NCBI GenBank assembly: GCA_008933615.1
Contig: WBUR01000002.1
Coordinates: forward strand, 28,372-92,371
Reading direction: 5' to 3'
Origin: a bacterium
Lineage (GTDB): Bacteria > CLD3 > SB21
Length of the DNA: 64,000 nt
Shown here: positions 31,218 through 44,539 of the stretch, piece by piece
Numbering within the stretch: position 1 is the stretch's first letter
Layout of the letters: every line of letters starts with the position of its first letter
Program-made: the position numbers and the translations under genes
Notes under the pieces: model-generated
What the model was told of the DNA's origin: nothing
Seen by the model: the letters and a program-made list of their open reading frames with translations, nothing else
The model's database searches: none

Positions 31218-32483
31218 ATGGACCTTTCAAAGAAGTTAAAAAATATTACGGATGAAACAATCCGGCTGATGGCTATAGTTGAAATTGGTAAACTGCTGAA
31301 TTCGACGCTGGACTTAAATAAGATCCTCGAAATTATTTTAGATACGGCCATAAAGAACCTGAATGCCGATCGGGGGACCGTTTATTTGATTGATCATGAA
31401 AAAAAACAATTGTGGTCGAAGGTACTGCAAGGCGATAGCATTGTTGAAGTGCGTTTAGCGCTTGGTCAGGGAATTGCAGGCTTTGTTGCCCAAACAGGAA
31501 AAAAAATTATTTTAAAGGACGCTTATAAAGACCCGCGATTCAACCCCGATTTTGACAAAAAAACGGGTTACGTGACAAAAAGCATACTGTGTATGCCTAT
31601 GAAAAACCGCAAGGGACAAATGATCGGCGTCTTTCAGATTCTCAATAAAAAGACCGGTTTTTTTAATGTTGACGACACAAAGTTTCTTGACACCTTATCC
31701 GTAGACGCTTGTATTGCAATTGAGAACGCGCGTCTTTACGAAGAAGCCATCGAAAAAGAACGAATGGAAAAGGAACTTGAAGTTGCGGCCACAATTCAGG
31801 AAATGATAATTCCGAAAGAGATTGTTCAGCAAGAGGGCTATGAAATTGCGGGTTTCAATGTACCGAGCAAACAAGTTGGTGGCGATTTCTATGATGTTGT
31901 CTATCTTCCGAACGGTAATACTGCGCTAATCATAGCCGATGTTTCCGGCAAGAGTATCCCGGGAGCCTTACTGGTGTCGACATTGCAAGCGTCGTTGCGC
32001 GCATACCTGGAAAGTGACTTTGAACTTGAAAAACTTGTTACAAAGTTAAATCGCATCATACTGAAAAATTCGACTGCAGATAAATATATTACTTTTTTTA
32101 TCGGAATTCTTGACCCCAAAACCCATACTTTGAAATCCGTCAATGCAGGCCATAATCCGCCGCTTATTTGCCGAAACGGAACTATCAAGAAACTTACGGT
32201 CGGCGGTATTCCGCTGGGTATGTATCCGTATGACCAATATGAATCGGAGGAAACTCAATTAGGGCCCAATGACGTTGTCGTTATGTTTACAGATGGGGTT
32301 ACGGAAGCGGCCGACAAGGATGACGAATTTTACGATGATAACAGGCTGGAACAATGCGTTTTAAAGAACGCTCAATTACATGCCGATAAATTGAAACAGG
32401 TTATTTTCGACGATGTGAAAGAGTTTGTTGGCGAAGCCGAACAATCGGATGACATAACGATGCTCTTATTAAGAAAAAAATAG
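31218..32483 (+). CDS. GAF-domain PP2C-type (SpoIIE/RsbU-like) serine phosphatase
   Basis: N-terminal GAF (…DRGTVYLID…GIAGFVAQTGK…), then a PPM phosphatase domain (…GGDFYDV…IADVSGKS…FTDGVTEA…DDITML). Confidence 0.8.
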   Translation: MDLSKKLKNITDETIRLMAIVEIGKLLNSTLDLNKILEIILDTAIKNLNADRGTVYLIDHEKKQLWSKVLQGDSIVEVRLALGQGIAGFVAQTGKKIILKDAYKDPRFNPDFDKKTGYVTKSILCMPMKNRKGQMIGVFQILNKKTGFFNVDDTKFLDTLSVDACIAIENARLYEEAIEKERMEKELEVAATIQEMIIPKEIVQQEGYEIAGFNVPSKQVGGDFYDVVYLPNGNTALIIADVSGKSIPGALLVSTLQASLRAYLESDFELEKLVTKLNRIILKNSTADKYITFFIGILDPKTHTLKSVNAGHNPPLICRNGTIKKLTVGGIPLGMYPYDQYESEETQLGPNDVVVMFTDGVTEAADKDDEFYDDNRLEQCVLKNAQLHADKLKQVIFDDVKEFVGEAEQSDDITMLLLRKK

Positions 32484-32502
32484 ACGTGTAAAGGGGGGGA
32501 TT

Positions 32503-33423
32503 ATGAAAACAGTATTCTCATTACTTATACTTTCATTCTGCTTAGTTTGTTCTGCCTATTCCCAGAGTACAAGCGGAAATGCAATGATTGTAAGCATTTC
32601 CGGCGATGTTCGATGCGCGACGTCACAACCTGCAATTCTAAAAACCGGGACTATCCTTGCGTCAAAAGACTCGCTTTTCTTAGGTGAAAAAGCAACGATT
32701 ACAATTTTGGAAGAAGACGGGAAAGTAACTACATACAGTCAATCATTTAGATTGGCGAGTAAATCCGAATGTAACCCCACACTCCAAAAGTTACTTAAAC
32801 AGGGCATACAAAGCCAAAACTGGATTGAATCTGCAAAAAAGAAACCGCGAAATAATTTCCGCTCCAACACGACTGACAACATCAGTATGGTTTATCCTCG
32901 GAACACCCGTTTGACGAAACTACCTGAGCGGCTGAATTGGACGGTATTGACTAAATCCGAAAGTGAATACGAAGTTTCAATTCGGTGTTATGAGAACGAT
33001 TTTTCATACGATCATACAACCGGAAACAATAGCCTAGATATAAGTTCGGATATATCGCTTTCAATCGGGCAGCAATATTATTGGTTTGTTCGGGATGTTT
33101 TTTCCGAACTTTCCGAAGTTCCTTCGGCAGTTTGGTTCAACGTTCTGGATACGAAGGAGATAAAAAAATTAGAACAGGAAAGACAAACCGTTGCGTTTAT
33201 CATGAATAACGACACACTCTCAGTTGCGTATCAAATGCTCTTCGCTAACTTGTTGATGTCGTATGAACTCTATGATGAATGCAAATCGTTATTGGATGAT
33301 TTATCAAAGCAAGACGGTCAGAACCATTTGCTCCACACATTTTATGCAATCATTTATGACAAAATGGATTTAATTAGCGATTCCAGAAAATATATCGAGT
33401 ATACTGATCAATATAGTAAATAG
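32503..33423 (+). CDS. Hypothetical secreted protein
   Basis: Signal peptide MKTVFSLLILSFCLVCSAYSQ. No recognisable domain. Confidence 0.45.
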   Translation: MKTVFSLLILSFCLVCSAYSQSTSGNAMIVSISGDVRCATSQPAILKTGTILASKDSLFLGEKATITILEEDGKVTTYSQSFRLASKSECNPTLQKLLKQGIQSQNWIESAKKKPRNNFRSNTTDNISMVYPRNTRLTKLPERLNWTVLTKSESEYEVSIRCYENDFSYDHTTGNNSLDISSDISLSIGQQYYWFVRDVFSELSEVPSAVWFNVLDTKEIKKLEQERQTVAFIMNNDTLSVAYQMLFANLLMSYELYDECKSLLDDLSKQDGQNHLLHTFYAIIYDKMDLISDSRKYIEYTDQYSK

Positions 33424-33542
33424 AATGGTTTTTTTTTGGAAATATGACAAAAGTCATTTGATTTATAAATAAAGTTTTTTACAATAGGTGGAACTTTAAT
33501 GGGTTGTTGTGCGTTAAAACGTATAGTTGACAGACAAAAAAT

Positions 33543-33968
33543 ATGATGATTTACAACAAAATAGTTAAAACGGGTATAGTTGCAATAACCATAACTGCAC
33601 TAATAGCGGTATATTTTAGTTCCGGTATGAAAATTTTGTGCTCGGCAAATGCGAGCGAAAGTATGACTTGTTGCAAGTCGGCTGACACTTCAAAAAATAG
33701 TTGCGATTCTCAAGGGCCGAATACTTTATCGCTTCAATCCGCACATAAGTGTCCTTGTCCTTCAATGCAAACGGGGCCTAATCAGAGTTTTGACGAAGTA
33801 TTGCCTAATACTGGAAAAGCAGAGTCAAAATCACAATCTGTTCAATGCACTTCTATTTCCACAGAAATTTACACAAGTTCCATCTCTGAATTAGTTTTGA
33901 CCGGTTATGTACATTCTTATTTATCTGCACATGAACGCCTTTCTCTCCTTCAAACCTTCCTTATTTAA
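33543..33968 (+). CDS. Hypothetical membrane-anchored Cys-rich protein immediately upstream of the metal-efflux operon
   Basis: N-terminal TM helix (GIVAITITALIAVYF), then …MTCCKS…NSCDS…HKCPCPS… Weak RBS; could be spurious. Confidence 0.3.
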   Translation: MMIYNKIVKTGIVAITITALIAVYFSSGMKILCSANASESMTCCKSADTSKNSCDSQGPNTLSLQSAHKCPCPSMQTGPNQSFDEVLPNTGKAESKSQSVQCTSISTEIYTSSISELVLTGYVHSYLSAHERLSLLQTFLI

Positions 33969-33997
33969 TCTCTTCTTTTTTTGATCATTGCTGTAGG

Positions 33998-34020
33998 TTG
34001 TTTTGACATTGTCAAAACAA
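33998..34020. promoter_or_regulatory. Perfect 23-bp palindrome (candidate operator) upstream of the metal-efflux operon
   Basis: TTGTTTTGACA-T-TGTCAAAACAA has 11-bp arms and a 1-bp spacer. It sits 80 bp upstream of the OMP gene start. A 1-nt loop makes a terminator hairpin unlikely. Confidence 0.45.
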
Positions 34021-34099
34021 TGTTATGCTATTCAGGTTATGTGGAATAGTGTGGCAACGCCGTAATCTAAAATGATGATTTCAAAAGAGGAAGATTTGT

Positions 34100-35377
34100 A
34101 TGTTTCATTCTATAAAAACCACGTTGTTTATTCTACTTGTATCACAGACCGTGTGTGCACAAACGCAAGACGGCTTAAGCCTTAATGAGCTTATTCAAGA
34201 AGCATTAGACAACAACCCGCAGTTACATTCTGCACGCCATCAAGCGGACGCCGCTAAAGCGCAAATCAAACAAGTGACCTCACTGGATGCACCGCAAGTT
34301 GGAATAGAGTTTTATCAAACACCGATTCAATCTTTTCCGATCGCGACAAAGAATAGCATGGAAACCGATTATTTTGTTCAGCAGATGTTTCCGTGGCCCG
34401 GAAAGTTATCCGGTATGGGAAAAATTGCAGAAAATAATGTCGCTATGAAAGAACAGGAATCGAAAGCGCTGGATAAGAAAATCATACGGGATCTTAAATC
34501 GGCGTATTATGAACTGTATCTAGTTCAGCGAAAGATGGAGATCAATGGAGAAAATAAACGCATCATGCAAAAGATCATTGATATTGCCCTTAAACAATAC
34601 GAAGTAGGCGCCGGAAATCAATCCGATATTTTGCGTGCGCAAACTGAATTGACAAAATTGACCAATGAAAGTTTTCTGTTGGAGAGGGAAAAAGGAATTA
34701 CGGAGGCTATGATCAATACATTGATCAGCAGACCAGCAAATCAACCTTTGGGGCGAATTGCAGAATTAGAGATTCATGATGTGAAAGTGGGCTTTGACCC
34801 ATTGGTTGCGATAGCCGAAGATAACCGTGCCGAACTAAAAGCTATGGGTTACAATATTGAGATGTTCAAGTCTGAACAAGCACTCGCGAAGCGCGAATTC
34901 TATCCCGACATCATGGTTCGCGGAATGTATAAGAACATGTCCAATACTTCAAAAGACTTTTGGTCGCTGATGATCGGTTTCAATGTTCCGATTGCGTTTT
35001 GGTCTAAAAATAGATACCAGGGTAAAGTCAATGAATTTGGTAAGCATATCAATCATGCAGAGATGGAATATCGGGATACGAAAAACATGATCGGAAATGA
35101 TATTCAGAATGCTTTGGTCATCATGGAGTCGTCGCGTAAGCAAGCGGATGAAATTAAGCGTCATCTTATTCCACAGGCAGAAGCGACATTAGAAGCAACG
35201 CTGGCGTCGTATCAATCGGGTAAAACATCATTCATCATGGCGCTGGACAGTTACCGGATGTTGTTAATGGCTAAACTGGATTATTCGATGAGCGTAATGA
35301 ATACTGCGGTCAGTGAGGCCCAGTTGGAACAGGCCGTTGGCTTGAGTATGAACGAAATTAAGGAGCGACTCAAATAA
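34100..35377 (+). CDS. TolC-family outer-membrane efflux protein (CusC/CzcC-like)
   Basis: Signal peptide. Two-repeat OEP architecture with conserved …YYELYLVQRKMEI… and …GAGNQSDILRAQTEL… segments. Confidence 0.8.
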   Translation: MFHSIKTTLFILLVSQTVCAQTQDGLSLNELIQEALDNNPQLHSARHQADAAKAQIKQVTSLDAPQVGIEFYQTPIQSFPIATKNSMETDYFVQQMFPWPGKLSGMGKIAENNVAMKEQESKALDKKIIRDLKSAYYELYLVQRKMEINGENKRIMQKIIDIALKQYEVGAGNQSDILRAQTELTKLTNESFLLEREKGITEAMINTLISRPANQPLGRIAELEIHDVKVGFDPLVAIAEDNRAELKAMGYNIEMFKSEQALAKREFYPDIMVRGMYKNMSNTSKDFWSLMIGFNVPIAFWSKNRYQGKVNEFGKHINHAEMEYRDTKNMIGNDIQNALVIMESSRKQADEIKRHLIPQAEATLEATLASYQSGKTSFIMALDSYRMLLMAKLDYSMSVMNTAVSEAQLEQAVGLSMNEIKERLK

Positions 35378-35394
35378 GTTGGGTCGTAATAATC

Positions 35395-38300
35395 ATGATA
35401 GAAAAAATTATTGATTGGAGCAGTAAGAATAGACTAATAGTTATATTTGCGTATTTGATTCTGACAGGATATGGTATATATGCTGTTTTCAATATGCCGG
35501 TCGATGCTATACCTGATTTATCGGAAAACCAGGTTATTATTTTTACGGAGTGGATGGGCCGGTCGCCGCAAATTGTGGAGTCCCAGTTAACATTTCCGAT
35601 CGTATCGTCTTTGCAGGGATTGCCGGATGTCAAAGCGGTTAGAGCGGCATCGATGTTCGGCATGTCCTTCGTCTTTGTAATCTTTGAAGACAATACGGAT
35701 ATTTACTTTGCGCGAACGCGTGTGCTTGAGCGGCTAAGCACGGTTCAAACTACGTTGCCGCCCGGGGTGACGCCGTCATTGGGGCCGGATGGGACGGGCG
35801 TGGGCCATGTATTTTGGTACACGGTCGAAGGAGAGGGTTATGATCTGGGAACCCTGCGTGCCGTGCAGGATTGGTATATTCGATATAAACTTGCTGCCGT
35901 TGATGGGGTAGCCGAAGTTGCCGGAATCGGTGGTTTTGTAAAACAATACCAGGTGGATATAAACCCGCTTCAATTACGCGCTTATAACATTTCAATTTCA
36001 GACGTCGTCAATGCGATCCAACGAAGCAATAATGAAGTGGGCGGCAAGATCATTGAGGCGAGCGACGCAGAATATTTTGTAAGAGGGCAGGGCTATATTC
36101 AATCGGTCGACGATATCGGCAATTCGCTTATAAGAACCGCGCCAAACGGAATTCCTGTTTTGATAAAGAACGTTGCAACCGTGCAGGTTGGCGGAGATAT
36201 CCGCAGAGGCTCTCTGGAAAAAGACGGAAAAGGCCAAGTAGTCGGCGGAATTATTGTCATGCGTAACGGAGAAAACGCTAAAGAGGTCATAGATCGTGTG
36301 AAGGAGAAAATTAATGAGATCTCACCGGGTCTGCCGTTCGGAGTTCAAATCGTTCCTTCCTATGACCGCAGCACACTTATTCGGGATGCTATCGGAACGC
36401 TTGAGCGTGCGCTGGTCGAGGCGGCAATCACCGTTTCAATCATGGTGGCCATATTTCTTCTGCACTTCAGGAGCATTTTGCGAATTATTATCGAAATTCC
36501 TGTTTCTGTGTTATTGTCTTTTATCCTCATGCGGATATTTGGAATCACATCGAACATCATGAGTCTTGGCGGTATCATTTTGGCAATTGGGGTCATTGTT
36601 GATGCTTCCATAGTCATGGTGGAAAATGCATATAGGAATATTGCGCATGCGATAGAAGAAAAAGGGCATTTGAGCGCGGAAGATTACAAAACAATTTCAA
36701 TATCATCTGCCAAGCAAGTCGGGCGGGCGATATTCTTTTCCGAACTCATCATTTTAGTGTCATTCCTGCCCGTATTTTTATTAACAGGACAAGAGGGAAA
36801 ACTATTTACGCCATTGGCATTTACAAAAACGTTTGTGATGATCGCTTCTGCCGTAGTAGTTATTACCCTAATCCCGGTCCTCATGACATTGCTTATGAAG
36901 GGAAAATTCAGGCCTGAAAAACAAAATCCTGTCACGGGCTTCTTCATTTGGATATACGAGCCCGTTATTCACTGGGTATTAAAATATCGCAAGACTACCA
37001 TTGCCATCAATGCCATTGCGTTGATTATTACGATACCGATGATCGTGAAAACAGGTTCTGAATTCATGCCGCCATTGGATGAAGGATCCATTTTGTATAT
37101 GCCGGTTACGCTGCCGAATGCCTCAATTACTGAAGTAAATCGTATCTTGCAGTTGCAGGACCAAATTATTCATACTGTACCGGAAGTTCACCATGTTCTC
37201 GGTAAGGCCGGTCGTGCTGAAACGGCTACCGATAACGCCCCGCTAAGCATGATTGAAACGATTATTGTTCTCAAGCCGAAGGAAGAATGGCGAGCGGGAA
37301 TTACAAAGAAAGATATTATCGCTGAACTGGATCAGAAGTTGCAGATTCCGGGTGTCCGTAACGGGTGGACGCAGCCGATCATCAATAGAATTAACATGCT
37401 CTCAACCGGAGTTCGTACGGATATTGGTTTTAAGATATTCGGCGACAATTTGGATACACTCGAATATTACGCAATTAAAGCAGAGCAACTACTCAAGACC
37501 GTGGATGGAGCGGCGGACGTAGTAGCGGAACGCGTTCAAAACGGATATTATCTCGATATTGACCTTAAACGCGAAGCGTTAGCCCGCTATGGCGTCAATA
37601 TAGCCGATATTCAAGACATCATAGAGACGGCCATTGGCGGACAAAATTTAGGTATTGTACTGCAGGAAAGAATGAGATTTCCTATTCGGATGCGATACGA
37701 ACGCGAAATTCGCGATAATATTGAAGAATTGAAAAATCTCATAATACCTGTGAATGTTTCCGGAGGAATGAGCAATACCGGCGGCATGAGTTCAGCAGGC
37801 GTAGCTTCTCAGAGCATGGTAAGTCGAAAAATGGGTAGTTCGCCGGGTATGCAAAATACTAACACGGATAAAACTTATGAAGCATCTTTGACAAACGGGT
37901 TTTCACTCACAACTTCCTCCGGTGATACAAAAGTCTATCTGCCTCTTTCATATTTGGCCGACATAAAGACGTTGACAGGCCCACCCATGATCAATAGCGA
38001 GAACGGTATGCTGCGGTCTATTGTTTTTATGAATACGCGAGGGCGCGATATGGGCAGCGTGATGGAGGACGCTAAAAATGTGATCACTGAAAAATTGGAC
38101 CTTCCGACAGGGTATACCTACACATGGAGCGGACAATACGAACATAAGGTCAGAGCACAAAGAACTTTGACCATCATTATGCCGGTCGTATTCTTACTGA
38201 TATTTTTCATGCTTTACTATACACTGCATGATTACAAAGAAGCGGGCGTCGTCATGTTGTCCGTGCCTTTTGCGCTGATTGGTGGTATGTATATGATTTA

Positions 38301-38745
38301 TTTTTTGGATTACAATTTTTCAGTTGCAGTCTGGGTCGGATTTATTGCTCTGTATGGGATTGCCACACAAACCGGCGTCATCATGGTAGTCTATTTGCAT
38401 GAGGCTTTGGACCGGCGTATTCGTGATCATGAAAAGGGACTGCGGGGCCCTGTCACCGTGAAGGATATTTATGACGCGACAGTGGAAGGTTCGGTCTTGC
38501 GGCTTCGCCCCAAACTCATGACCGTTAGTACAGCCATGATAGGACTCATTCCGGTTATGTGGGCAACCGGGGCCGGATCGGATGTCATGAAACCATTAAC
38601 GGCGCCTATGATCGGCGGGTTGTTTACATCGGCGGTTCATGTGCTGGTCGTTACGCCAATTTTGTTTGTCATTATGAAGGAACTCGCGCTGAAAAAAGGA
38701 AAACTCGAGAAATCTAAAATGGCGGATTGGATGAGAGAAGGATGA
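35395..38745 (+). CDS. cusA: Heavy-metal efflux RND transporter, CusA/CzcA (HME) family, with a Met/Ser/Gly-rich periplasmic insertion
   Basis: The N-terminus aligns closely with E. coli CusA (…PVDAIPDLSENQVIIFTEWMGRSPQIVESQLTFPI…IFEDNTDIYFARTRVLERL…GPDGTGVGHVFWY…). 12-TM RND topology. Insert at about aa 785-845. Confidence 0.9.
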   Translation: MIEKIIDWSSKNRLIVIFAYLILTGYGIYAVFNMPVDAIPDLSENQVIIFTEWMGRSPQIVESQLTFPIVSSLQGLPDVKAVRAASMFGMSFVFVIFEDNTDIYFARTRVLERLSTVQTTLPPGVTPSLGPDGTGVGHVFWYTVEGEGYDLGTLRAVQDWYIRYKLAAVDGVAEVAGIGGFVKQYQVDINPLQLRAYNISISDVVNAIQRSNNEVGGKIIEASDAEYFVRGQGYIQSVDDIGNSLIRTAPNGIPVLIKNVATVQVGGDIRRGSLEKDGKGQVVGGIIVMRNGENAKEVIDRVKEKINEISPGLPFGVQIVPSYDRSTLIRDAIGTLERALVEAAITVSIMVAIFLLHFRSILRIIIEIPVSVLLSFILMRIFGITSNIMSLGGIILAIGVIVDASIVMVENAYRNIAHAIEEKGHLSAEDYKTISISSAKQVGRAIFFSELIILVSFLPVFLLTGQEGKLFTPLAFTKTFVMIASAVVVITLIPVLMTLLMKGKFRPEKQNPVTGFFIWIYEPVIHWVLKYRKTTIAINAIALIITIPMIVKTGSEFMPPLDEGSILYMPVTLPNASITEVNRILQLQDQIIHTVPEVHHVLGKAGRAETATDNAPLSMIETIIVLKPKEEWRAGITKKDIIAELDQKLQIPGVRNGWTQPIINRINMLSTGVRTDIGFKIFGDNLDTLEYYAIKAEQLLKTVDGAADVVAERVQNGYYLDIDLKREALARYGVNIADIQDIIETAIGGQNLGIVLQERMRFPIRMRYEREIRDNIEELKNLIIPVNVSGGMSNTGGMSSAGVASQSMVSRKMGSSPGMQNTNTDKTYEASLTNGFSLTTSSGDTKVYLPLSYLADIKTLTGPPMINSENGMLRSIVFMNTRGRDMGSVMEDAKNVITEKLDLPTGYTYTWSGQYEHKVRAQRTLTIIMPVVFLLIFFMLYYTLHDYKEAGVVMLSVPFALIGGMYMIYFLDYNFSVAVWVGFIALYGIATQTGVIMVVYLHEALDRRIRDHEKGLRGPVTVKDIYDATVEGSVLRLRPKLMTVSTAMIGLIPVMWATGAGSDVMKPLTAPMIGGLFTSAVHVLVVTPILFVIMKELALKKGKLEKSKMADWMREG

Positions 38746-38790
38746 AGAATTTACGATCGATGAATAGATCAATTTAAGGAGGTAGTTTGT

Positions 38791-40086
38791 ATGAAATATG
38801 TTTTGGTTTTATCAATACTGATAGTGGCGGGGATTGCCGGTTGTTCAAATAAAGAGTCGAGTGGTGATGAAAAAGAGAAAACAAAAGAAATCTATTATTG
38901 TCCGATGCATCCGGAAGTTACTTCAGAAAAGCCCGGGGTATGCCCGATTTGCAATATGGATCTGGTAAAAAAGGTTGATGAGAAAAGGGCGGTAATGGAG
39001 GACATGCCAGGAATGATTAATCTGAGTTTACAAAAACAAGTTCTGGCAAATGTCTCTACGCTCAAAATTCAAAAGGAACATTTTTTAAAGGAACTTGTGT
39101 CCTATAGTTATCTCGATTTTGCAGAGCAAAATAGAAGGCTTATTTCTGCAAGATTTAACGGACGGATTGAAAAGCTGTTTGTCGATAAGACAGGTGACTA
39201 CATAAGCCGAGGACAGCCTTTATTTGAGATTTATAGTCCGGATTTGCTGGAAGCGCAGAACGAATATCTCATTGCACTTGAAAATACAGCCTCGATCCGC
39301 AAAACATCGTTTAATGACGCTGCCAGTACTAACACTTTAATCAAATCTTCACGCAAACGGCTTGAATTATATGGGTTGACGGATGAACAAATTGCGACCC
39401 TCGATTCAAGTCGTGAGTTACAATACACTATGACATATTATTCGCCTATTAGCGGAACGGTTATTGAAAAAAAGATTCAGGAGGGAGCATATGTAAATGA
39501 AGGCACGCTTCTTTATGATATCGCCGATATGTCCACCTTATGGGGTATTGCGGAAATTTATGAAAAAGATTTGTCTTTGATTAAAGTTGGCAACAGGGTC
39601 AAGCTTCGTCTTCCGGCATATCCGGATGAGGCTTTTGAAGGCTCTGTAAATTTTATATATCCTGTGGTCAACTCGCAAACACGCACGGTAAAAGTTCGCT
39701 CTGAATTTTCTAATGTAAATCACAAACTCAGGCCGCAGATGTATGGGGAGATTGTCGTTCAACAAGACATGGGAAAACAACTGCTGATTTCTCAGGATGC
39801 GGTTCTGTTTACAGGAAAACGTCAAATTGTATGGGTGAAAACGGCAGAAGACCATTTTGAGTCCAAGGAAGTGACTTTGGGAATTAAGAATGACGGGAAA
39901 TATCAAGTGTTATCCGGATTAAAAGAAGGCGATGAAGTAGCCGTAACCGGCGGATTTCTCATTGACTCCGAAAGCCAGCTTCGCAGCGGAAAGGCTACGG
40001 GACATCAACATGAAGGCATGAAAATGGACGATGATTCAAAGGATCAAAAAAAGGAAACAAATGAAAGCCCAGAACACAAACACTAG
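38791..40086 (+). CDS. cusB: Membrane-fusion (periplasmic adaptor) protein CusB/CzcB-like with an N-terminal heavy-metal-binding domain
   Basis: Lipobox IAGC. YYCPMHPEV…GVCPICNMDL is an HMBD/YHS-like Cys motif. The HlyD-like body …RLISARFNGRIEKLFVDKTGDYISRGQPLFEIYSPDLLEAQNEYL… follows. His-rich C-terminal tail …HQHEGMKMDD…EHKH. Confidence 0.85.
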   Translation: MKYVLVLSILIVAGIAGCSNKESSGDEKEKTKEIYYCPMHPEVTSEKPGVCPICNMDLVKKVDEKRAVMEDMPGMINLSLQKQVLANVSTLKIQKEHFLKELVSYSYLDFAEQNRRLISARFNGRIEKLFVDKTGDYISRGQPLFEIYSPDLLEAQNEYLIALENTASIRKTSFNDAASTNTLIKSSRKRLELYGLTDEQIATLDSSRELQYTMTYYSPISGTVIEKKIQEGAYVNEGTLLYDIADMSTLWGIAEIYEKDLSLIKVGNRVKLRLPAYPDEAFEGSVNFIYPVVNSQTRTVKVRSEFSNVNHKLRPQMYGEIVVQQDMGKQLLISQDAVLFTGKRQIVWVKTAEDHFESKEVTLGIKNDGKYQVLSGLKEGDEVAVTGGFLIDSESQLRSGKATGHQHEGMKMDDDSKDQKKETNESPEHKH

Positions 40087-40104
40087 GCTAAGGAGATAAA
40101 GTTT

Positions 40105-40476
40105 ATGAAAAGGACCCATAAACATAAAAATTACAACAATCGCATTTTATTGATTTCAGCTATTGGACTTCTTGTCTTTGCAATTGTTTCTTTGCTAAAC
40201 CTTGAGTTGGATGTAAAAGAGAACGTCGGGATATCAACGTCCAAAGCGACATCATCCGATGTTAGGGTAACCAAAATTGCATCGAAATTTATATGCAGTT
40301 GTGGAAGTTGTGGCGGTGAACCACTTGATTTATGTTCATGTGAGCATGCAGTTAAAGTGCGACAATATATCCAAGAGTATTTGTTAAATAATAAAAGCGA
40401 GGATCAGATTGTCGCCTTAATCAGCAAATCATACGGCGGATTGAAACCTCAATTTGAAAAAAACACGATAAAATGA
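40105..40476 (+). CDS. CcmH/NrfF-like domain protein with an expanded Cys cluster, membrane-anchored
   Basis: N-terminal signal anchor. …FICSCGSCGGEPLDLCSCEHAVKVRQYIQEYLLNNKSEDQIVALISKSYGG aligns with E. coli CcmH …LRCPKCQNN…DLRQKVYELMQEGKSKKEIVDYMVARYGNFV. RBS AAGGAGA lies 9 nt upstream and 18 bp after the cusB stop. Confidence 0.55.
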   Translation: MKRTHKHKNYNNRILLISAIGLLVFAIVSLLNLELDVKENVGISTSKATSSDVRVTKIASKFICSCGSCGGEPLDLCSCEHAVKVRQYIQEYLLNNKSEDQIVALISKSYGGLKPQFEKNTIK

Positions 40477-40535
40477 AATGTGTCTGAAAGTCCGAACACT
40501 TAACTAATTAATTAACGTACTTAAAGGGAGTATAC

Positions 40536-41054
40536 ATGCAAAATGTCCATCCTATGTTAATTCACTTTCCAATCGCTTTATTTCTGACAGCGATGATCTT
40601 TGACCTCGTCTCTTTTGCCCGTAGAAATGAATCTTTTGAAAATATGGCTTCTAAACTATTTATTCTCAGCGCTATTGCATTTATAGCGTCCGCTATCACT
40701 GGACTTTTAGCAGAAAACAGTGTGTCGCACAGCGAAGAAGCGCATCACATTATGGAAGACCATAAACTCTTTCAATTGATTGCTACAGGCATTTCTGTTT
40801 TTATTGCTTTACTAATATTTTTTGTCAAAAAAAGAATGCAATTGCTAAGATTAGTATTAACTCTTCTCGGTGCAGGATTCATGACGTACGGCTCGTACCT
40901 GGGTGGCGAACTTGTCTATAGGTTTGGAATTGGAACAAATGTGCAAGTAATAAAACCTGATAGCAATAGACAGAATGAGCAACCCATACAAGAAGTCAAA
41001 AAAGACTCTACAGAAACTGAAGAGCACTCTGATACCCACGAGCACAAACACTAA
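40536..41054 (+). CDS. 4-TM membrane protein, DUF2231-like, with a His-rich C-terminal tail
   Basis: MLIHFPIALFLTAMIFDL… plus three further helices. Tail …TEEHSDTHEHKH. Confidence 0.5.
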   Translation: MQNVHPMLIHFPIALFLTAMIFDLVSFARRNESFENMASKLFILSAIAFIASAITGLLAENSVSHSEEAHHIMEDHKLFQLIATGISVFIALLIFFVKKRMQLLRLVLTLLGAGFMTYGSYLGGELVYRFGIGTNVQVIKPDSNRQNEQPIQEVKKDSTETEEHSDTHEHKH

Positions 41055-41081
41055 TTAATTTTTAAAAAGAAAGAAACTAAC

Positions 41082-41666
41082 ATGAAGACATATGACATTA
41101 AGACTTATATAGTGTTGATTATCAGCGTCGCCGCGGTAACTCTGAACGGATGCATGATGATGGCAATGGGTGGCATGACTCATGACTCGCATTCTGATCG
41201 CGGAATACATCAATCTCAATCTGTAGAAATTCAAAAAGGCGATTTAAAAGCTATCTTGACCGTGCCTGCCCTCGTTATGGGGAAGGAGTCGGAAATTGTC
41301 ATGAAAGTATATGACCGCCATGGAATGGCCGTATCCGGCGCTAAAGTTACTATGCAATTTGATGCTGATCATGAGATGAAGAAGGATCACAATCACGGTT
41401 CTTTCGGTGGAGAAGAAAGGACTGCCGTAGAGACGGCGGGAAAGGGCACGTATAGCCTAAAACATAGCTTTGATCATCACGGTGCCATGCGTGTTACGGC
41501 GAAGATTTCCTATCAGGAGAATTCAGAGCCGCTTGTTCTGGCTATGACCACTGGGGTGTCACACATGCAAGAAAATCACAGCGGCCGCTCCATGACGCCC
41601 ATGATTATTGCAGGCGCCGCTCTGATGGCCGTGATGATGATTTTTATGATAGGAAGATACAATTAG
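41082..41666 (+). CDS. His/Met-rich lipoprotein with a FixH/YtkA-like beta-sandwich region and a C-terminal TM anchor
   Basis: Lipobox LNGC followed by MMMAMGGMTHDSHSD. His clusters DADHEMKKDHNHG and HSFDHHG. C-terminal helix IIAGAALMAVMMIFMIG. Fold assignment is tentative. Confidence 0.55.
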   Translation: MKTYDIKTYIVLIISVAAVTLNGCMMMAMGGMTHDSHSDRGIHQSQSVEIQKGDLKAILTVPALVMGKESEIVMKVYDRHGMAVSGAKVTMQFDADHEMKKDHNHGSFGGEERTAVETAGKGTYSLKHSFDHHGAMRVTAKISYQENSEPLVLAMTTGVSHMQENHSGRSMTPMIIAGAALMAVMMIFMIGRYN

Positions 41667-41699
41667 CAAATCATTATAAACTTAAAAAGGATTATTGCT

Positions 41700-42287
41700 A
41701 TGAAAACAATGAAAATCTCAACAATGGTACTTCTTGGACTTCTATGGGTCATGAGTTGCAGCAATAACGATGATATGATGCAGGCACTGCGGATTAGCCC
41801 AAAAGATGGCGAAACGGGTGTTGCCTTGAATAAAAACATCGAATTGGATTTTGATACACCTATGGCGCGTTCAGTTGTTCAAAGAAATTTCCACATGATG
41901 ACAACACAAAAAATGCAGACGATTGCAGATTCCATGATGGTTTATATGGTAATGATGGGGATGATGACACACGGCGATTCAGCGACAATTTATGACGGAA
42001 TGATGCGAATGATGGACAACAATACGATGCGCGGAACCTTTGTTTGGAACTCGGATTCGACCCGGTGCACGTTTGATCCTGATTCGCTTATGATGCCCGG
42101 TACACAATACCGAATGCACATGGGCCAAGAAATGATGACGATGACCGGTATGATGCAAGGTGACGGTATGATGTCGGATGACAATCATGGAATGATGGGC
42201 AATGCCGGCGGTATGATGCATGGGGATATGATGATTAATTTTACTACCGGCAACAGTATGATGAAATCAGGCAACCTGAAAAATTAG
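41700..42287 (+). CDS. Extremely methionine-rich lipoprotein: an Ig-like (Big_5-type) domain plus an MM-dipeptide repeat tail
   Basis: Lipobox VMSC. …ISPKDGETGVALNKNIELDFDTPM… resembles a bacterial Ig-like domain. About 40 of 195 residues are Met, mostly as MM pairs (SMMVYMVMMGMMTHG, DGMMRMMDNN, GMMQGDGMMSDDNHGMMGNAGGMMHGDMM). Confidence 0.65.
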   Translation: MKTMKISTMVLLGLLWVMSCSNNDDMMQALRISPKDGETGVALNKNIELDFDTPMARSVVQRNFHMMTTQKMQTIADSMMVYMVMMGMMTHGDSATIYDGMMRMMDNNTMRGTFVWNSDSTRCTFDPDSLMMPGTQYRMHMGQEMMTMTGMMQGDGMMSDDNHGMMGNAGGMMHGDMMINFTTGNSMMKSGNLKN

Positions 42288-42297
42288 GAGTAGAACT

Positions 42298-42660
42298 ATG
42301 TTAGTTCATAATAGAATTTTTATAGCGGCTATATTCAGTCTGATCTTTGCGACCGGATGTACCAGCCCCATGTTGACCATATATAAGGAAAATCCTCTGT
42401 CCAAAGAAGTAATAATCATTGCCGGCAACACTGAAAACATGACCATCGGCAAAACCTACATTGTCTATCGAAACGAAATCCATACCACCTTGCCTTCATC
42501 CGGCGCTCATGCAGGACACGGTGGTCATGATATGGGAGGATCCACCCTTTCAAGAAAGATGGTGGGTCTTATACTTATTACAACAATTTTGGATTCTAAA
42601 ACCGCCTCTGCTCAAGTCGTAAGTGGTGACGTGCAGAATGGAGATATAGCCGAGGAATAG
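42298..42660 (+). CDS. Small His-rich lipoprotein (hypothetical)
   Basis: Lipobox FATGC. Motif SSGAHAGHGGHDMGG. Last gene of the tightly packed operon. Confidence 0.45.
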   Translation: MLVHNRIFIAAIFSLIFATGCTSPMLTIYKENPLSKEVIIIAGNTENMTIGKTYIVYRNEIHTTLPSSGAHAGHGGHDMGGSTLSRKMVGLILITTILDSKTASAQVVSGDVQNGDIAEE

Positions 42661-42767
42661 TCGGATAAAATCTGTCAACACAATAATTTCTCTTGAGGTA
42701 TATTCTTTAAAGTATTTCTGAAATTGATTCTAACTCAATTCTCATTAATTAAACCAAGGAGTGATTT

Positions 42768-43121
42768 ATGAAAACCAGGATGTCTTTTTCTGTGTTAGTG
42801 ATGTTAATTTTGTGTCTGAATGTCAAAGCTTGGGCACAGGAATCAAAAGAAGCCGAAATTATATCGAAAATAGTTACCATTGATGTTCCTACCATTAAAT
42901 GCGGTTCATGCGTTAAAACCGTATCGAATGCTCTCAAACAATTGAAGGGAGTGGAAGAAGTCACTGTGGATAAAAAATCTAAAACGGCAGTTGTAAAATA
43001 CGATCCATCAAAACTAAAAGTAAATGACTTAGAAACGGCGATTTCAAAATCAGGTTATGACGCCAACGAGGTAAAAAGAGACAAAAAAGCGTTTGACGAA
43101 TTGGACTCATGTTGCCGCTAA
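42768..43121 (+). CDS. Secreted heavy-metal-associated (HMA) domain protein with a non-canonical CxxC motif
   Basis: Signal peptide (…NVKAWAQ). Ferredoxin-like HMA pattern …IVTIDVPTIKCGSCVKTVSNALKQLKGVEEVTVDKKSKTAVVKYD…LETAISKSGYDA…. C-terminus ends …DSCCR. Confidence 0.65.
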   Translation: MKTRMSFSVLVMLILCLNVKAWAQESKEAEIISKIVTIDVPTIKCGSCVKTVSNALKQLKGVEEVTVDKKSKTAVVKYDPSKLKVNDLETAISKSGYDANEVKRDKKAFDELDSCCR

Positions 43122-43238: not shown

Positions 43239-43811
43239 ATGCCCGAATTGAAGTTCAAAAAAGCATTGATCGAACAATCTCGTGTCAAAGCTAATCATAG
43301 CGTGCTTGATTTTGGTATGGGTACGGCCACATTATCTCTTTTACTAAAAAAAGAAGTACCCGATTCCTTTGTTACCGGAGTTGACGTTGATGATAAAATA
43401 TTATCTATTGCAAAACGGAAAATCGAGGAAAACAAAGCCGTGATTGTTGTTGATATATATGACGGATTAAAGCTCCCGTATGAGAATAATTCATTTGACA
43501 GGGTAATAACAAGCCTCGTGTTCCATCACCTTGATAAAGAACAAAAACTTAATTCTCTAAAAGAAATTTACCGGGTACTTAAACCAGCAGGAGAATTGCA
43601 TATAGCGGATTGGGGAAAAGCATCGAACGGATTTATGCGTTTGGTTTTTTATGGTGTACAGCTATTTGATGGATTTAGAACAACAAAAGATAATATTAAC
43701 GGATTACTGCCCGAATACATAAACAAAGCAGGATTTAAAGATATAAAAACGGGCAAATCTTTTAACACAATATTTGGAACGCTAACGCTATATAGAGGAG
43801 GCAAAAGTTGA
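43239..43811 (+). CDS. Class I SAM-dependent methyltransferase
   Basis: Motif I VLDFGMGTAT. Motif post-I VTGVDVDD. …VLKPAGELHIADW…. Confidence 0.75.
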   Translation: MPELKFKKALIEQSRVKANHSVLDFGMGTATLSLLLKKEVPDSFVTGVDVDDKILSIAKRKIEENKAVIVVDIYDGLKLPYENNSFDRVITSLVFHHLDKEQKLNSLKEIYRVLKPAGELHIADWGKASNGFMRLVFYGVQLFDGFRTTKDNINGLLPEYINKAGFKDIKTGKSFNTIFGTLTLYRGGKS

Positions 43812-44539
43812 TAAAAATATTCCAGGAAGACTATATGAATAAATATTTTTTAATGTTTTTAGCCGTTCTATTGCTAGGGTGCAAAAAAAACGAAACGTAC
43901 CAAGTTTATTACCGAGGCTCTTTAAGAGCCATCATGATGGGTGAAGACCTGGAAGCGAAAATGGAGATGGATTCAATAGCCGGGCTAAAGAACCTTTATG
44001 CTCTCGGTGCCATGGAAAACTTAAAAGGAGAAATGCTAGTCTTAAATAGCATTCCTCTTATCTCTACTGTAAGCGATTCTACGGTAACCGTTGAACGTAC
44101 TTTTAATAAAAAACCGGCATTACTTGTGTATGTACAGGTTACCCGTTGGGATACGATCAAAATTACACAACCATTACGCGATACGGGTGAATTAGAATCT
44201 TTAATTGCATCCATGATTGAAACAAGGCGTTTAACACAGCCTGTGCCATTTATATTGCGTGGGAACTTTGAATCACTTGAATGGCATGTGATACGACCCA
44301 AAAATAGAAAAATACAAAATGAACACGACGGGCATAAGAATACCGGCTTTAAGGGGGTATTAAAAAATGAAAACGATGTTTATGTATTAGGATTTTTTTC
44401 CACCGAACATCAGGGTATCATTACCCACCACGATGCATTTACGCATATGCATTTTAAGACACCGGATGATAAGCTGGCTGGACATGTAGACAATATTATT
44501 CTTAAAGGTGAGGTGAACTTATTGTTACCAGGTATATAG
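43808..44539 (+). CDS. Alpha-acetolactate decarboxylase-family lipoprotein
   Basis: Lipobox LLGCKK. The pattern …YQVYYRGSLRAIMMGE…GLKNLYALGAMENLKGEMLVLNS… and …VLGFFSTEHQGIITHHDAFTHMHFKT… parallels ALDC family proteins. The true start is probably the internal MNKYF at 43835. Confidence 0.5.
   Translation: MIKIFQEDYMNKYFLMFLAVLLLGCKKNETYQVYYRGSLRAIMMGEDLEAKMEMDSIAGLKNLYALGAMENLKGEMLVLNSIPLISTVSDSTVTVERTFNKKPALLVYVQVTRWDTIKITQPLRDTGELESLIASMIETRRLTQPVPFILRGNFESLEWHVIRPKNRKIQNEHDGHKNTGFKGVLKNENDVYVLGFFSTEHQGIITHHDAFTHMHFKTPDDKLAGHVDNIILKGEVNLLLPGI

Follow-up and report, generated by a model that had tools for sequence, protein, structure and literature searches.

Among the described systems closest to the locus analyzed here, Escherichia coli CusCFBA is a tripartite pump made of an outer-membrane protein (OMP), a CusA-type resistance-nodulation-division (RND) permease and a CusB-type adaptor (membrane-fusion protein, MFP), accompanied by the chaperone CusF and by CusRS. 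In Helicobacter pylori, the Met-rich copper binder CrdA is encoded with crdB-czcB-czcA and is a non-CusF partner of a copper RND pump (PMC9182242; PDB 9ll2 and 9ll4). A relay that brings reducing power into the periplasm has been proposed for Campylobacter jejuni FetABCDEF, which includes a DUF2318/YHS membrane protein, an FtsX-type ABC transporter and thiol oxidoreductases (PMC10783030). In Bacillus subtilis, CtaK (YtkA) and the YtkA domain of YcnJ have been implicated in copper handling, and the YtkA domain in copper delivery to CuA (PMC13344008). In this study, we analyzed a pump operon with a string of accessory genes in a 64 kb window (the whole stretch of DNA under analysis, 64,000 nt) of contig WBUR01000002.1, which comes from a metagenome-assembled genome (MAG) of an uncultured bacterium and carries the phylum label CLD3. 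To our knowledge, most Cus-type pumps outside Proteobacteria are without CusF, and the source of their periplasmic Cu(I) is poorly known. The locus contains a compact, conserved set of candidate CusF substitutes, one of them with a predicted CrdA-like fold. We think it probable, though by no means certain, that it combines a Cus-type pump with lineage-specific envelope proteins which capture Cu(I)/Ag(I) in place of CusF, preceded by a leader that masks a ribosome-binding site (RBS). Functional statements made below are drawn from sequence, modelled structure and gene context.

Locus layout and comparison with described systems

Reading of the open reading frames (ORFs) in the window gave nine closely spaced ORFs on the plus strand, spanning 34100-43121 and separated by gaps of 17, 45, 18, 59, 27, 33, 10 and 107 nt (Table 1). 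Together with a Cys-rich small ORF upstream, they probably form a ten-gene unit (33543-43121), and no terminator-like site was found on the plus strand in any of its intergenic gaps. A first-pass annotation, made from the sequence alone, had given the order OMP-RND-MFP and described gaps of 10-60 bp followed by 107 bp before the last gene. The order is borne out by the ORF coordinates and family matches, and the gaps were measured as 10-59 and 107. It had also called for family searches (Pfam/InterPro); searches of Pfam and NCBIfam matched 8 of the 9 ORFs that it described to a family, the YtkA match being the sub-threshold case. Its statement that CusF, CusRS, CopA-type ATPases and multicopper oxidases are absent holds for the called genes and larger ORFs of the 64 kb window; likewise, known regulator families were not found across the window, as its remark on the lack of a nearby regulator would have it. 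Searches for CusF_Ec, histidine kinases and response regulators gave no match in the operon or anywhere in the window.

Table 1. Coordinates (window numbering) of the features of the locus
Feature	Position	Strand	Evidence and remarks
Promoter-like site TTGATT-16-TACAAT	33458..33485	+	Consensus scan; ~58 nt 5' of small ORF; candidate operon promoter
Small ORF, 141 aa, N-terminal transmembrane (TM) segment and Cys-rich domain	33543..33968	+	Open and conserved in relatives; overlooked by first-pass annotation
Structured leader, 131 nt, small-ORF stop to OMP start	33969..34099	+	Predicted helix P1 enclosing hairpins P2 and P3; overlooked by first-pass annotation
Perfect palindrome, 23 nt, TTGTTTTGACA-T-TGTCAAAACAA	33998..34020	.	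Putative leader hairpin P2 and/or protein operator; contains TTGACA
Outer-membrane factor, TolC/CusC-like, signal peptide	34100..35377	+	PF02321 OEP, 149.8 bits, E 1e-43
CusA-type heavy-metal-efflux (HME) RND permease, 1116 aa	35395..38745	+	TIGR00914, 1091.6 bits (cutoff 701.45)
CusB-type membrane-fusion lipoprotein	38791..40086	+	PF16576, 243.6 bits; PF19335 HMBD, 51.2 bits
CcmH-like protein, signal-anchored, single-domain, 123 aa	40105..40476	+	PF03918, 26.4 bits (cutoff 25, marginal)
DUF2231 membrane protein, four-helix bundle	40536..41054	+	PF09990, 74.8 bits (cutoff 26.4); AlphaFold2 model
Lipoprotein, 194 aa, Met/His-rich tether, beta-sandwich, C-terminal TM helix	41082..41666	+	Lipobox; weakly YtkA-like
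Lipoprotein, 195 aa, Ig-like (Big_5) N-terminal part, then MM-rich segments	41700..42287	+	PF13205, 34.2 bits, aa 29-75
Lipoprotein, 120 aa, invariant SSG-H-AGHG-x-HD loop	42298..42660	+	No family match (Pfam, NCBIfam)
Secreted HMA-domain protein, 117 aa, MerP/CopZ-like, CGSC site, C-terminal CC	42768..43121	+	PF00403, 64.7 bits (cutoff 24.8)

With E. coli CusCFBA, the locus shares the tripartite composition, the Met triad of the RND subunit and a CusA-type TM4, and by these features the core pump is placed as an ordinary member of the Cus-type HME-RND systems. Judged by sequence, its departures from the described cus/czc/cop layouts are the C-A-B order, the lack of CusF and CusRS, the metal-binding extensions of CusB (HMBD and an MxDMPGM motif) and of CusA (a Met/Ser/Gly insertion of 62 aa), and the accessory string, which comprises six downstream genes, with the Cys-rich ORF upstream. 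The layout had been thought to be unlike any described arrangement; this stands for the order and the accessory string, but the locus is not without precedent because H. pylori crdA-crdB-czcB-czcA already pairs a copper RND pump with a non-CusF binder.

The fold of H. pylori CrdA is superposable on the model of the YtkA-like lipoprotein of the window. However, the two proteins are only 16-18% identical, the window protein has no match to the CopC/CrdA sequence family, and it is anchored at both ends (lipid and TM helix) and rich in His, while CrdA has no His; moreover, the window has several further accessory proteins and no CrdRS. Parts of the C. jejuni Fet system parallel the module in which relatives of the CcmH-like gene occur (see below), but that module goes with efflux pumps of the Cus type, not with the FetMP importer, its thiol protein is CcmH-like rather than thioredoxin-like, and the window keeps only the CcmH-like gene. 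With B. subtilis CtaK and YcnJ, the window shares an extracytoplasmic YtkA-type beta-sandwich lipoprotein, yet the context is an efflux pump instead of oxidase assembly or import, and the PF13115 match reaches 21.1 bits against a cutoff of 25.9. Finally, the HMA protein has the fold and CxxC site of MerP and CopZ and is secreted like MerP, but it carries an extra C-terminal CC, lies in a cus-type operon and stays below the equivalog cutoffs of both MerP (60.9 against 92.55) and CopZ (57.2 against 91).

Assignment of the pump to the Cus type

The best PDB match of the RND protein is E. coli CusA (948 bits), far above ZneA (547 bits), and M573, M623 and M672 of E. coli CusA all align with Met in the query (chain numbering offset 7). 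Because the Met triad is conserved and CusA is by far the better match, the pump is assigned to the Cus type (Cu(I)/Ag(I)) and not to the Czc type. Read directly, TM4 is AIGVIVDASIVMVEN, which in the established HME-RND classes is of the CusA type and not of the acidic Czc type; the acidic Czc residues are absent. The OMP is 89-92% identical to its orthologues in L087 and L004 (here and below, L numbers denote loci of relatives from MAGs, GTDB species genomes and metagenomes), and CusA is likewise 1116 aa long in both. Compared with E. coli CusA, the insertion lies at aa ~785-846 (nt 37747-37932), contains 8% Met and begins GGMSNTGGMSSAGVASQSMVSRKMGSSPGMQ. It may form an extra periplasmic loop that captures Cu(I).

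The CusB-type protein scores 177 bits with the CusB subfamily model NF007303, below the cutoff of 390. Its HMBD occupies aa 35-61 and is followed by MEDMPGM at aa 69-75 and, at the C-terminus, by a His/Met tail ending in EHKH. In the orthologue comparison, the HMBD is invariant, and the motif M-x-D-M-P-G-M is also conserved. The pattern MxxMPGM is the Cu(I) site of CopC, PcoC and CrdA (PMC9182242). The HMBD and MxDMPGM together may do much of the job of CusF in cis. The EHKH end is common to CusB (40072-40086) and the DUF2231 protein (41040-41054), and terminal HxH motifs are also present in the CusB orthologues of L087, L007 and L004 and in the closest subgroup of DUF2231 relatives.

Accessory genes are under selection and linked to pumps

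The same operon is found in syntenic relatives (L004/L005, L087 and L007). Compared with L087 and L004, the ratio of nonsynonymous to synonymous substitution rates (dN/dS) is 0.13-0.21 for the DUF2231, YtkA-like, Big_5, 120 aa and HMA genes and 0.04 for CusA, the value for the HMA gene coming from L087 only, with dS saturated against L004. The accessory genes are real and under purifying selection. In addition, the accessory families are rearranged beside CusA proteins of 44-46% identity in L088, L089 and L092 and occur beside CusB in L090. A check of neighbourhood conservation, which the first-pass annotation had proposed, thus gave linkage to HME-RND pumps that is kept in related MAGs across two CusA clades. 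The HMA gene has the same position in L004, L007 and L087.

The Big_5 and 120 aa genes (window 41700-42660) are 89% and 92% identical to those at 10664-11621 of L092, although the L092 CusA is only 46% identical to that of the window; the copies in syntenic relatives are 59-80% identical. Since these two genes are closer to L092 than to the syntenic relatives, the comparison suggests that accessory genes have been exchanged by recombination between paralogous pump operons.

By prediction, the accessory proteins are exported or tethered to the membrane, and they have conserved Met, His or Cys motifs. For comparison, the window background is 2.3% Met and 1.7% His. The YtkA-like lipoprotein contains 10.3% Met and 6.2% His, with both residues conserved. 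Its model has the CrdA/FetP/PmoD-type fold of copper binders: H. pylori CrdA was the best fold match by two methods (Foldseek E 5.9e-6), including the silver-bound CrdA structure, and FetP/P19 and PmoD came next among the Foldseek matches. There was no CopC match in Pfam at E <= 0.1, and the MxxMPGM motif is absent from this protein and present in CusB. A word-indexed search returned 8 homologues, and one orthologue (P0101) has a precomputed PF13115 match. It is worth mentioning that the MAG with NCBI prefix JNM05 has two YtkA-like copies, P0097 (JNM05_07575) and L007 (JNM05_09370), which are 98% and 68% identical to the window protein; by sequence, this MAG would either have two operons or mix two strains.

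For the Big_5 lipoprotein, the estimate of about 20% Met was accurate (21.0% measured), and the Met positions are conserved across 8 homologues. Alignment of the YtkA-like profile with the Big_5 profile by hhalign gave no relationship. The 120 aa lipoprotein had been called His-rich; overall its His content is only 4.2%, but its invariant HAGHG(G/S)HD loop keeps part of that description. When the YtkA-like, Big_5, 120 aa and CcmH-like proteins were searched against PDB sequences, either as single sequences or as profiles, no match rose above chance level.

The DUF2231 protein has 5.8% His, a His-rich loop (SHSEEAHHIMEDH) and a disordered tail ending in HEHKH. According to the positive-inside rule, its N-terminus, loop and tail would face the periplasm. 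H5 and H76 are kept in all of 22 relatives; only the closest subgroup has HxH tails. The immediate neighbours of its relatives are heterogeneous (121 flanking ORFs at 80 GTDB loci), the commonest flanking families being tRNA pseudouridine synthase (truA, 8) and phosphoribosylanthranilate isomerase (trpF, 5). Assignment of a function to DUF2231 from gene context was rejected on account of these heterogeneous neighbours, many of them in Methylococcaceae housekeeping loci. Many of the closest GTDB relatives are from Methylococcaceae methanotrophs (L009, L011, L020, L022-L024, L027-L029, L035, L037, L039-L042 and others). In the literature, nothing was found that joins DUF2231 with copper, and the only mention of DUF2231 found concerned a cysteine-annotation database.

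The CcmH-like gene belongs to a Cys-cluster family

The match of the CcmH-like protein to PF03918 is marginal, and its score with the NrfF model TIGR03147 is 14 bits (cutoff 159). Compared with the canonical LRCxxC, its motif FICSCGSCGGEPLDLCSC keeps CxxC, misses the Arg and has three extra Cys, and the protein has the family pattern C-x-C-G-x-C-x5-L-D-x-C-x-C. Only 3 CcmH-like matches were obtained by the word-indexed search, whereas a full HMMER scan gave 386 representative clusters, of which 190 reach E <= 1e-10. The pattern C-x-C-x2-C-x(4-10)-C-x-C was present in 142 of the 148 best matches (once in 74 and twice in 68), among which proteins 200-330 aa long that match over two or three stretches occur often. 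Both of the relatives that were read over their whole length (P0003 and that of L014) start with a zinc-ribbon-like Cys motif and continue with a TM segment. By these features, the window protein is classified as a minimal form of a separate Cys-cluster family.

To describe the gene context, 64 metagenome loci with a CcmH-like domain were fetched, and counts were taken from the 37 loci of at least 5 kb. FtrD-like (PF10080, formerly DUF2318), FtsX and ABC genes lie directly 3' of the CcmH-like gene in 27 of these loci, and a CusA-like pump is located upstream on the same strand in 20. The ORFs around the modules are enriched in HMBD (21), P-II-like (10), YHS (9), DUF2231 (7) and CcmF (4) families. 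Furthermore, the full CcmH-like/FtrD-like/FtsX/ABC module occurs among the same accessory genes in the CLD3 relatives L088 and L092, and FtrD-like/FtsX/ABC also in L089. Thus, the Cys-cluster family and its FtrD-like/FtsX/ABC partners are repeatedly attached to Cus-type pumps in uncultured bacteria, which suggests that copper in the periplasm passes through a so far undescribed redox or ABC-driven step. This widespread module and the structured leader are the two leads that go beyond the first-pass annotation.

Neither FtrD-like, FtsX and ABC genes nor ccm genes were found in the window; canonical CcmH is linked to the cytochrome c maturation genes ccmF and ccmE. Because the window keeps only the CcmH-like gene of the full module, this gene is probably an orphan remnant and dispensable. 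A bespoke chaperone is not supported for it; the gene reads as an orphan of a Cys-cluster module and is frameshifted or absent in sister genomes. In L087 (9216-9455) and L007 (1418-1668), its position is taken by an unrelated, mutually conserved non-coding spacer of ~240 nt containing GC-rich CCGCGG/CTGCGG repeats.

Two observations on more distant loci may be added. At many module-bearing loci among L096-L148 (for example L097 7245-7589 and L103 8197-8496), a P-II-like ORF of ~100-115 aa lies directly 3' of CusA, and HMBD and YHS proteins are also common there. The distant locus L014 (1-13300) contains RND-OMP-MFP genes, a CcmH-like gene, a CopA-type ATPase with YHS and HMBD, a DUF2231 protein with a His tail, a CcmF-like gene and a second CcmH-like gene. 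This gene content links DUF2231 and CcmH-like genes to apparent copper export in another lineage.

A small ORF and a leader with predicted structure precede the pump genes

The upstream small ORF has no gene call in the ENA record and no match in Pfam or NCBIfam. Its product is 74% identical to that of L087 and 58% identical to that of L004 at the amino acid level (dN/dS 0.27-0.30), and its Cys and His residues (C33, CC43-44, C54 and HKCPCP at 68-73) are all invariant in both. It is probably the first gene of the unit. As for the promoter-like site in front of it, such sites are at least as frequent in shuffled sequence as here, so the support that the site at 33458-33485 derives from the scan is weak.

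Between the small ORF and the OMP gene lies the leader. In the predicted helix P1, a pyrimidine tract that begins 2 nt after the small-ORF stop pairs with the Shine-Dalgarno region of the OMP gene (AAAAGAGGAAGA); the paired Shine-Dalgarno region, AAUGAUGAUUUCAAAAGAGGAAGA, is 8 nt before the ATG. The minimum free energy of the leader is -41.5 kcal/mol, against -24.5 +/- 3.4 for shuffled sequences (z -5.0), and its orthologues have the same architecture with z of -4.6 and -3.7. While the flanking genes have dS of 0.3-1.0, the leader is 88-89% identical in the relatives, with 95% identity at paired and 72-77% at unpaired positions. Substitutions fall on 4 of 88 paired positions and on 10-12 of 43 unpaired ones (Fisher p 0.002 and 0.0003). 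There was no match of the leader in Rfam 15, the only one reported being a chance-level mir-30 match inside cusA (E 0.24), and no additional copies came up in 58 loci searched with a covariance model built from the leader. The leader is a candidate for cis-acting control of a metal pump without a regulator nearby.

The perfect palindrome of 23 bp noted by the first-pass annotation is present within this leader. No second copy of its 21 nt core occurs in the window, where 0.01 copies would be expected by chance. In L087 and L004, the core TGTTTTGACA-N-TGTCAAAACA is conserved, the centre varies between T and G, and the outermost pair is not kept. Given the modelled fold, the palindrome may be an RNA hairpin in an RBS-masking leader rather than an operator. 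We gave up reading it as a canonical sigma-70 promoter, since the scan reports no site at this position and the -10-like hexamer that fits best is spaced by 15 nt.

Proposed mechanism and alternative explanations

In the mechanism that we favour, transcription would start upstream of the Cys-rich small ORF, and the 131 nt leader, with the palindrome as its hairpin P2, would conceal the RBS of the OMP gene. On reaching the end of the small ORF, a ribosome would occupy the 5' arm of P1 and could free the RBS; alternatively, some signal would open the leader. The CrdA/YtkA-like lipoprotein, the Ig-like lipoprotein with 21% Met, the His-loop lipoprotein and the secreted HMA protein would capture and buffer periplasmic Cu(I)/Ag(I). 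From these four periplasmic binders, which would replace CusF, the metal would pass to CusB, at its N-terminal sites, and to the CusA Met triad, and the DUF2231 protein would present periplasm-facing His sites at the inner membrane. The CcmH-like protein would be a leftover, probably dispensable, of a CcmH-like/FtrD-like/FtsX/ABC module similar to the part of C. jejuni FetABCDEF for which a redox relay is proposed. The first-pass annotation had already proposed an alternative periplasmic Cu(I)/Ag(I) module. That proposal gains from the selection on the genes, their linkage to pumps and the CrdA-like fold of one of the proteins, but it has to give up the CcmH-like gene as a member in its own right. 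A bolder version can also be considered, in which a modular periplasmic copper kit (CrdA/YtkA-like, Met-rich Ig, His-loop, DUF2231 and CcmH-like proteins, with FtrD-like/FtsX/ABC in the full form) moves between CusA clades and feeds the pump with Cu(I), with its expression controlled by a new leader RNA coupled to translation of the small ORF; we regard this version as unlikely.

Several observations weigh against the favoured mechanism. Several accessory genes look dispensable from the comparisons: frameshifts interrupt the CcmH-like gene in L004/L005 and the 120 aa gene in L004, L087 and L007 have no CcmH-like gene, and L007 has no more than a piece of the 120 aa gene along with a split DUF2231 gene. 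Relatives of the DUF2231 protein, which had been presented as part of a pump-linked set, turned out to be mostly scattered away from pumps (HME-RND within 10 kb at 13 of 80 GTDB loci). The YtkA match (E 4.9e-4) is below its cutoff, and the mean pLDDT (predicted local distance difference test) of the corresponding AlphaFold model is only 69 (core ~85). The Big_5, 120 aa and small-ORF proteins have no informative homologues. With regard to the leader, no compensatory substitutions were observed among the three near-identical sequences, from which the structure was itself derived, and a perfect palindrome containing TTGACA also has the appearance of a promoter-operator.

The last two points lead to the strongest competing explanation, which concerns the palindrome. 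It may act as DNA, as an operator bound by a dimeric repressor or activator whose gene lies elsewhere in the genome, and overlap a TTGACA -35 element of the pump promoter, with the RNA fold being incidental. We see this as a real possibility, though not the probable one. The perfect 11-1-11 dyad is unique in the window and, as read directly, contains TTGACA; an invariant core around a centre base that differs in L087 and L004 is what a protein site with dyad symmetry would show, and no compensatory changes speak for an RNA structure. Yet no regulator gene was found within 64 kb, no acceptable -10 element is present at 16-18 nt and the promoter scan reports none, conservation extends over the whole 131 nt with substitutions avoiding the predicted pairs, and an operator leaves the long P1 over the Shine-Dalgarno region unexplained. 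A different doubt touches the membership of the unit: a larger ancestral cluster may have left the CcmH-like gene, and perhaps also the 120 aa gene, as debris that contributes nothing in this genome. The short, single-domain CcmH-like gene without its usual FtrD-like/FtsX/ABC partners, its replacement by the unrelated 240 nt spacer in L087 and L007, and the broken copies of both genes listed above fit this explanation. Against it, both ORFs are intact in the window, the 120 aa gene has a dN/dS of 0.21 and its product, whose His loop is invariant, shares 92% identity with that of L092, and the frameshifts could be assembly errors, although one of them occurs in two independent assemblies. All in all, debris appears doubtful as an account of these two genes.

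The remaining alternatives concern function. The accessory genes could serve copper acquisition or the maturation of cuproproteins and cytochromes, as YtkA/CtaK- and FetP/P19-like chaperones and a CcmH-like thiol protein, with their proximity to the pump reflecting shared regulation only. CuA assembly involves CtaK and the YtkA domain (PMC13344008), FetP/P19 and PmoD are among the fold matches, and CcmF and CycH-like TPR genes are present in several of the larger clusters. We nevertheless hold this to be quite improbable: no oxidase, cytochrome or importer gene was found in the window, the best fold match is the efflux-associated CrdA, and the genes stay with Cus-type pumps through rearrangements. 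It is even less probable, indeed very much so, that the metal handled here is another thiophilic or divalent one (Hg, Cd, Zn or Au) instead of Cu(I)/Ag(I). The score of the HMA protein is slightly higher with MerP than with CopZ, and the small ORF and CcmH-like proteins are rich in Cys; however, the Met triad and CusA-type TM4 are present in CusA without the acidic Czc residues, and its match to CusA is much stronger than that to ZneA. Met-rich sites, moreover, favour Cu(I)/Ag(I).

Flanking genes

A promoter-like site at 42675-42704 lies within the 107 nt gap before the HMA gene, which may have a promoter of its own there. Downstream of the HMA gene, the region 43239-44539 of the window encodes an S-adenosylmethionine (SAM) methyltransferase and an acetolactate-decarboxylase-like, His-rich lipoprotein. 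The methyltransferase was excluded as a member of the unit, being absent in L004 and L087; it is only 28% identical over 68 aa to the methyltransferase of the L088 cluster and not orthologous to it. The acetolactate-decarboxylase-like lipoprotein, which is likewise left out of the unit, is kept after the operon in L087 (67% identity) and absent from L004 and L007. Just upstream of the unit (31218-33423), a GAF-SpoIIE (PP2C) phosphatase and a secreted protein of 306 aa without a family are encoded, both of which are syntenic in L087.

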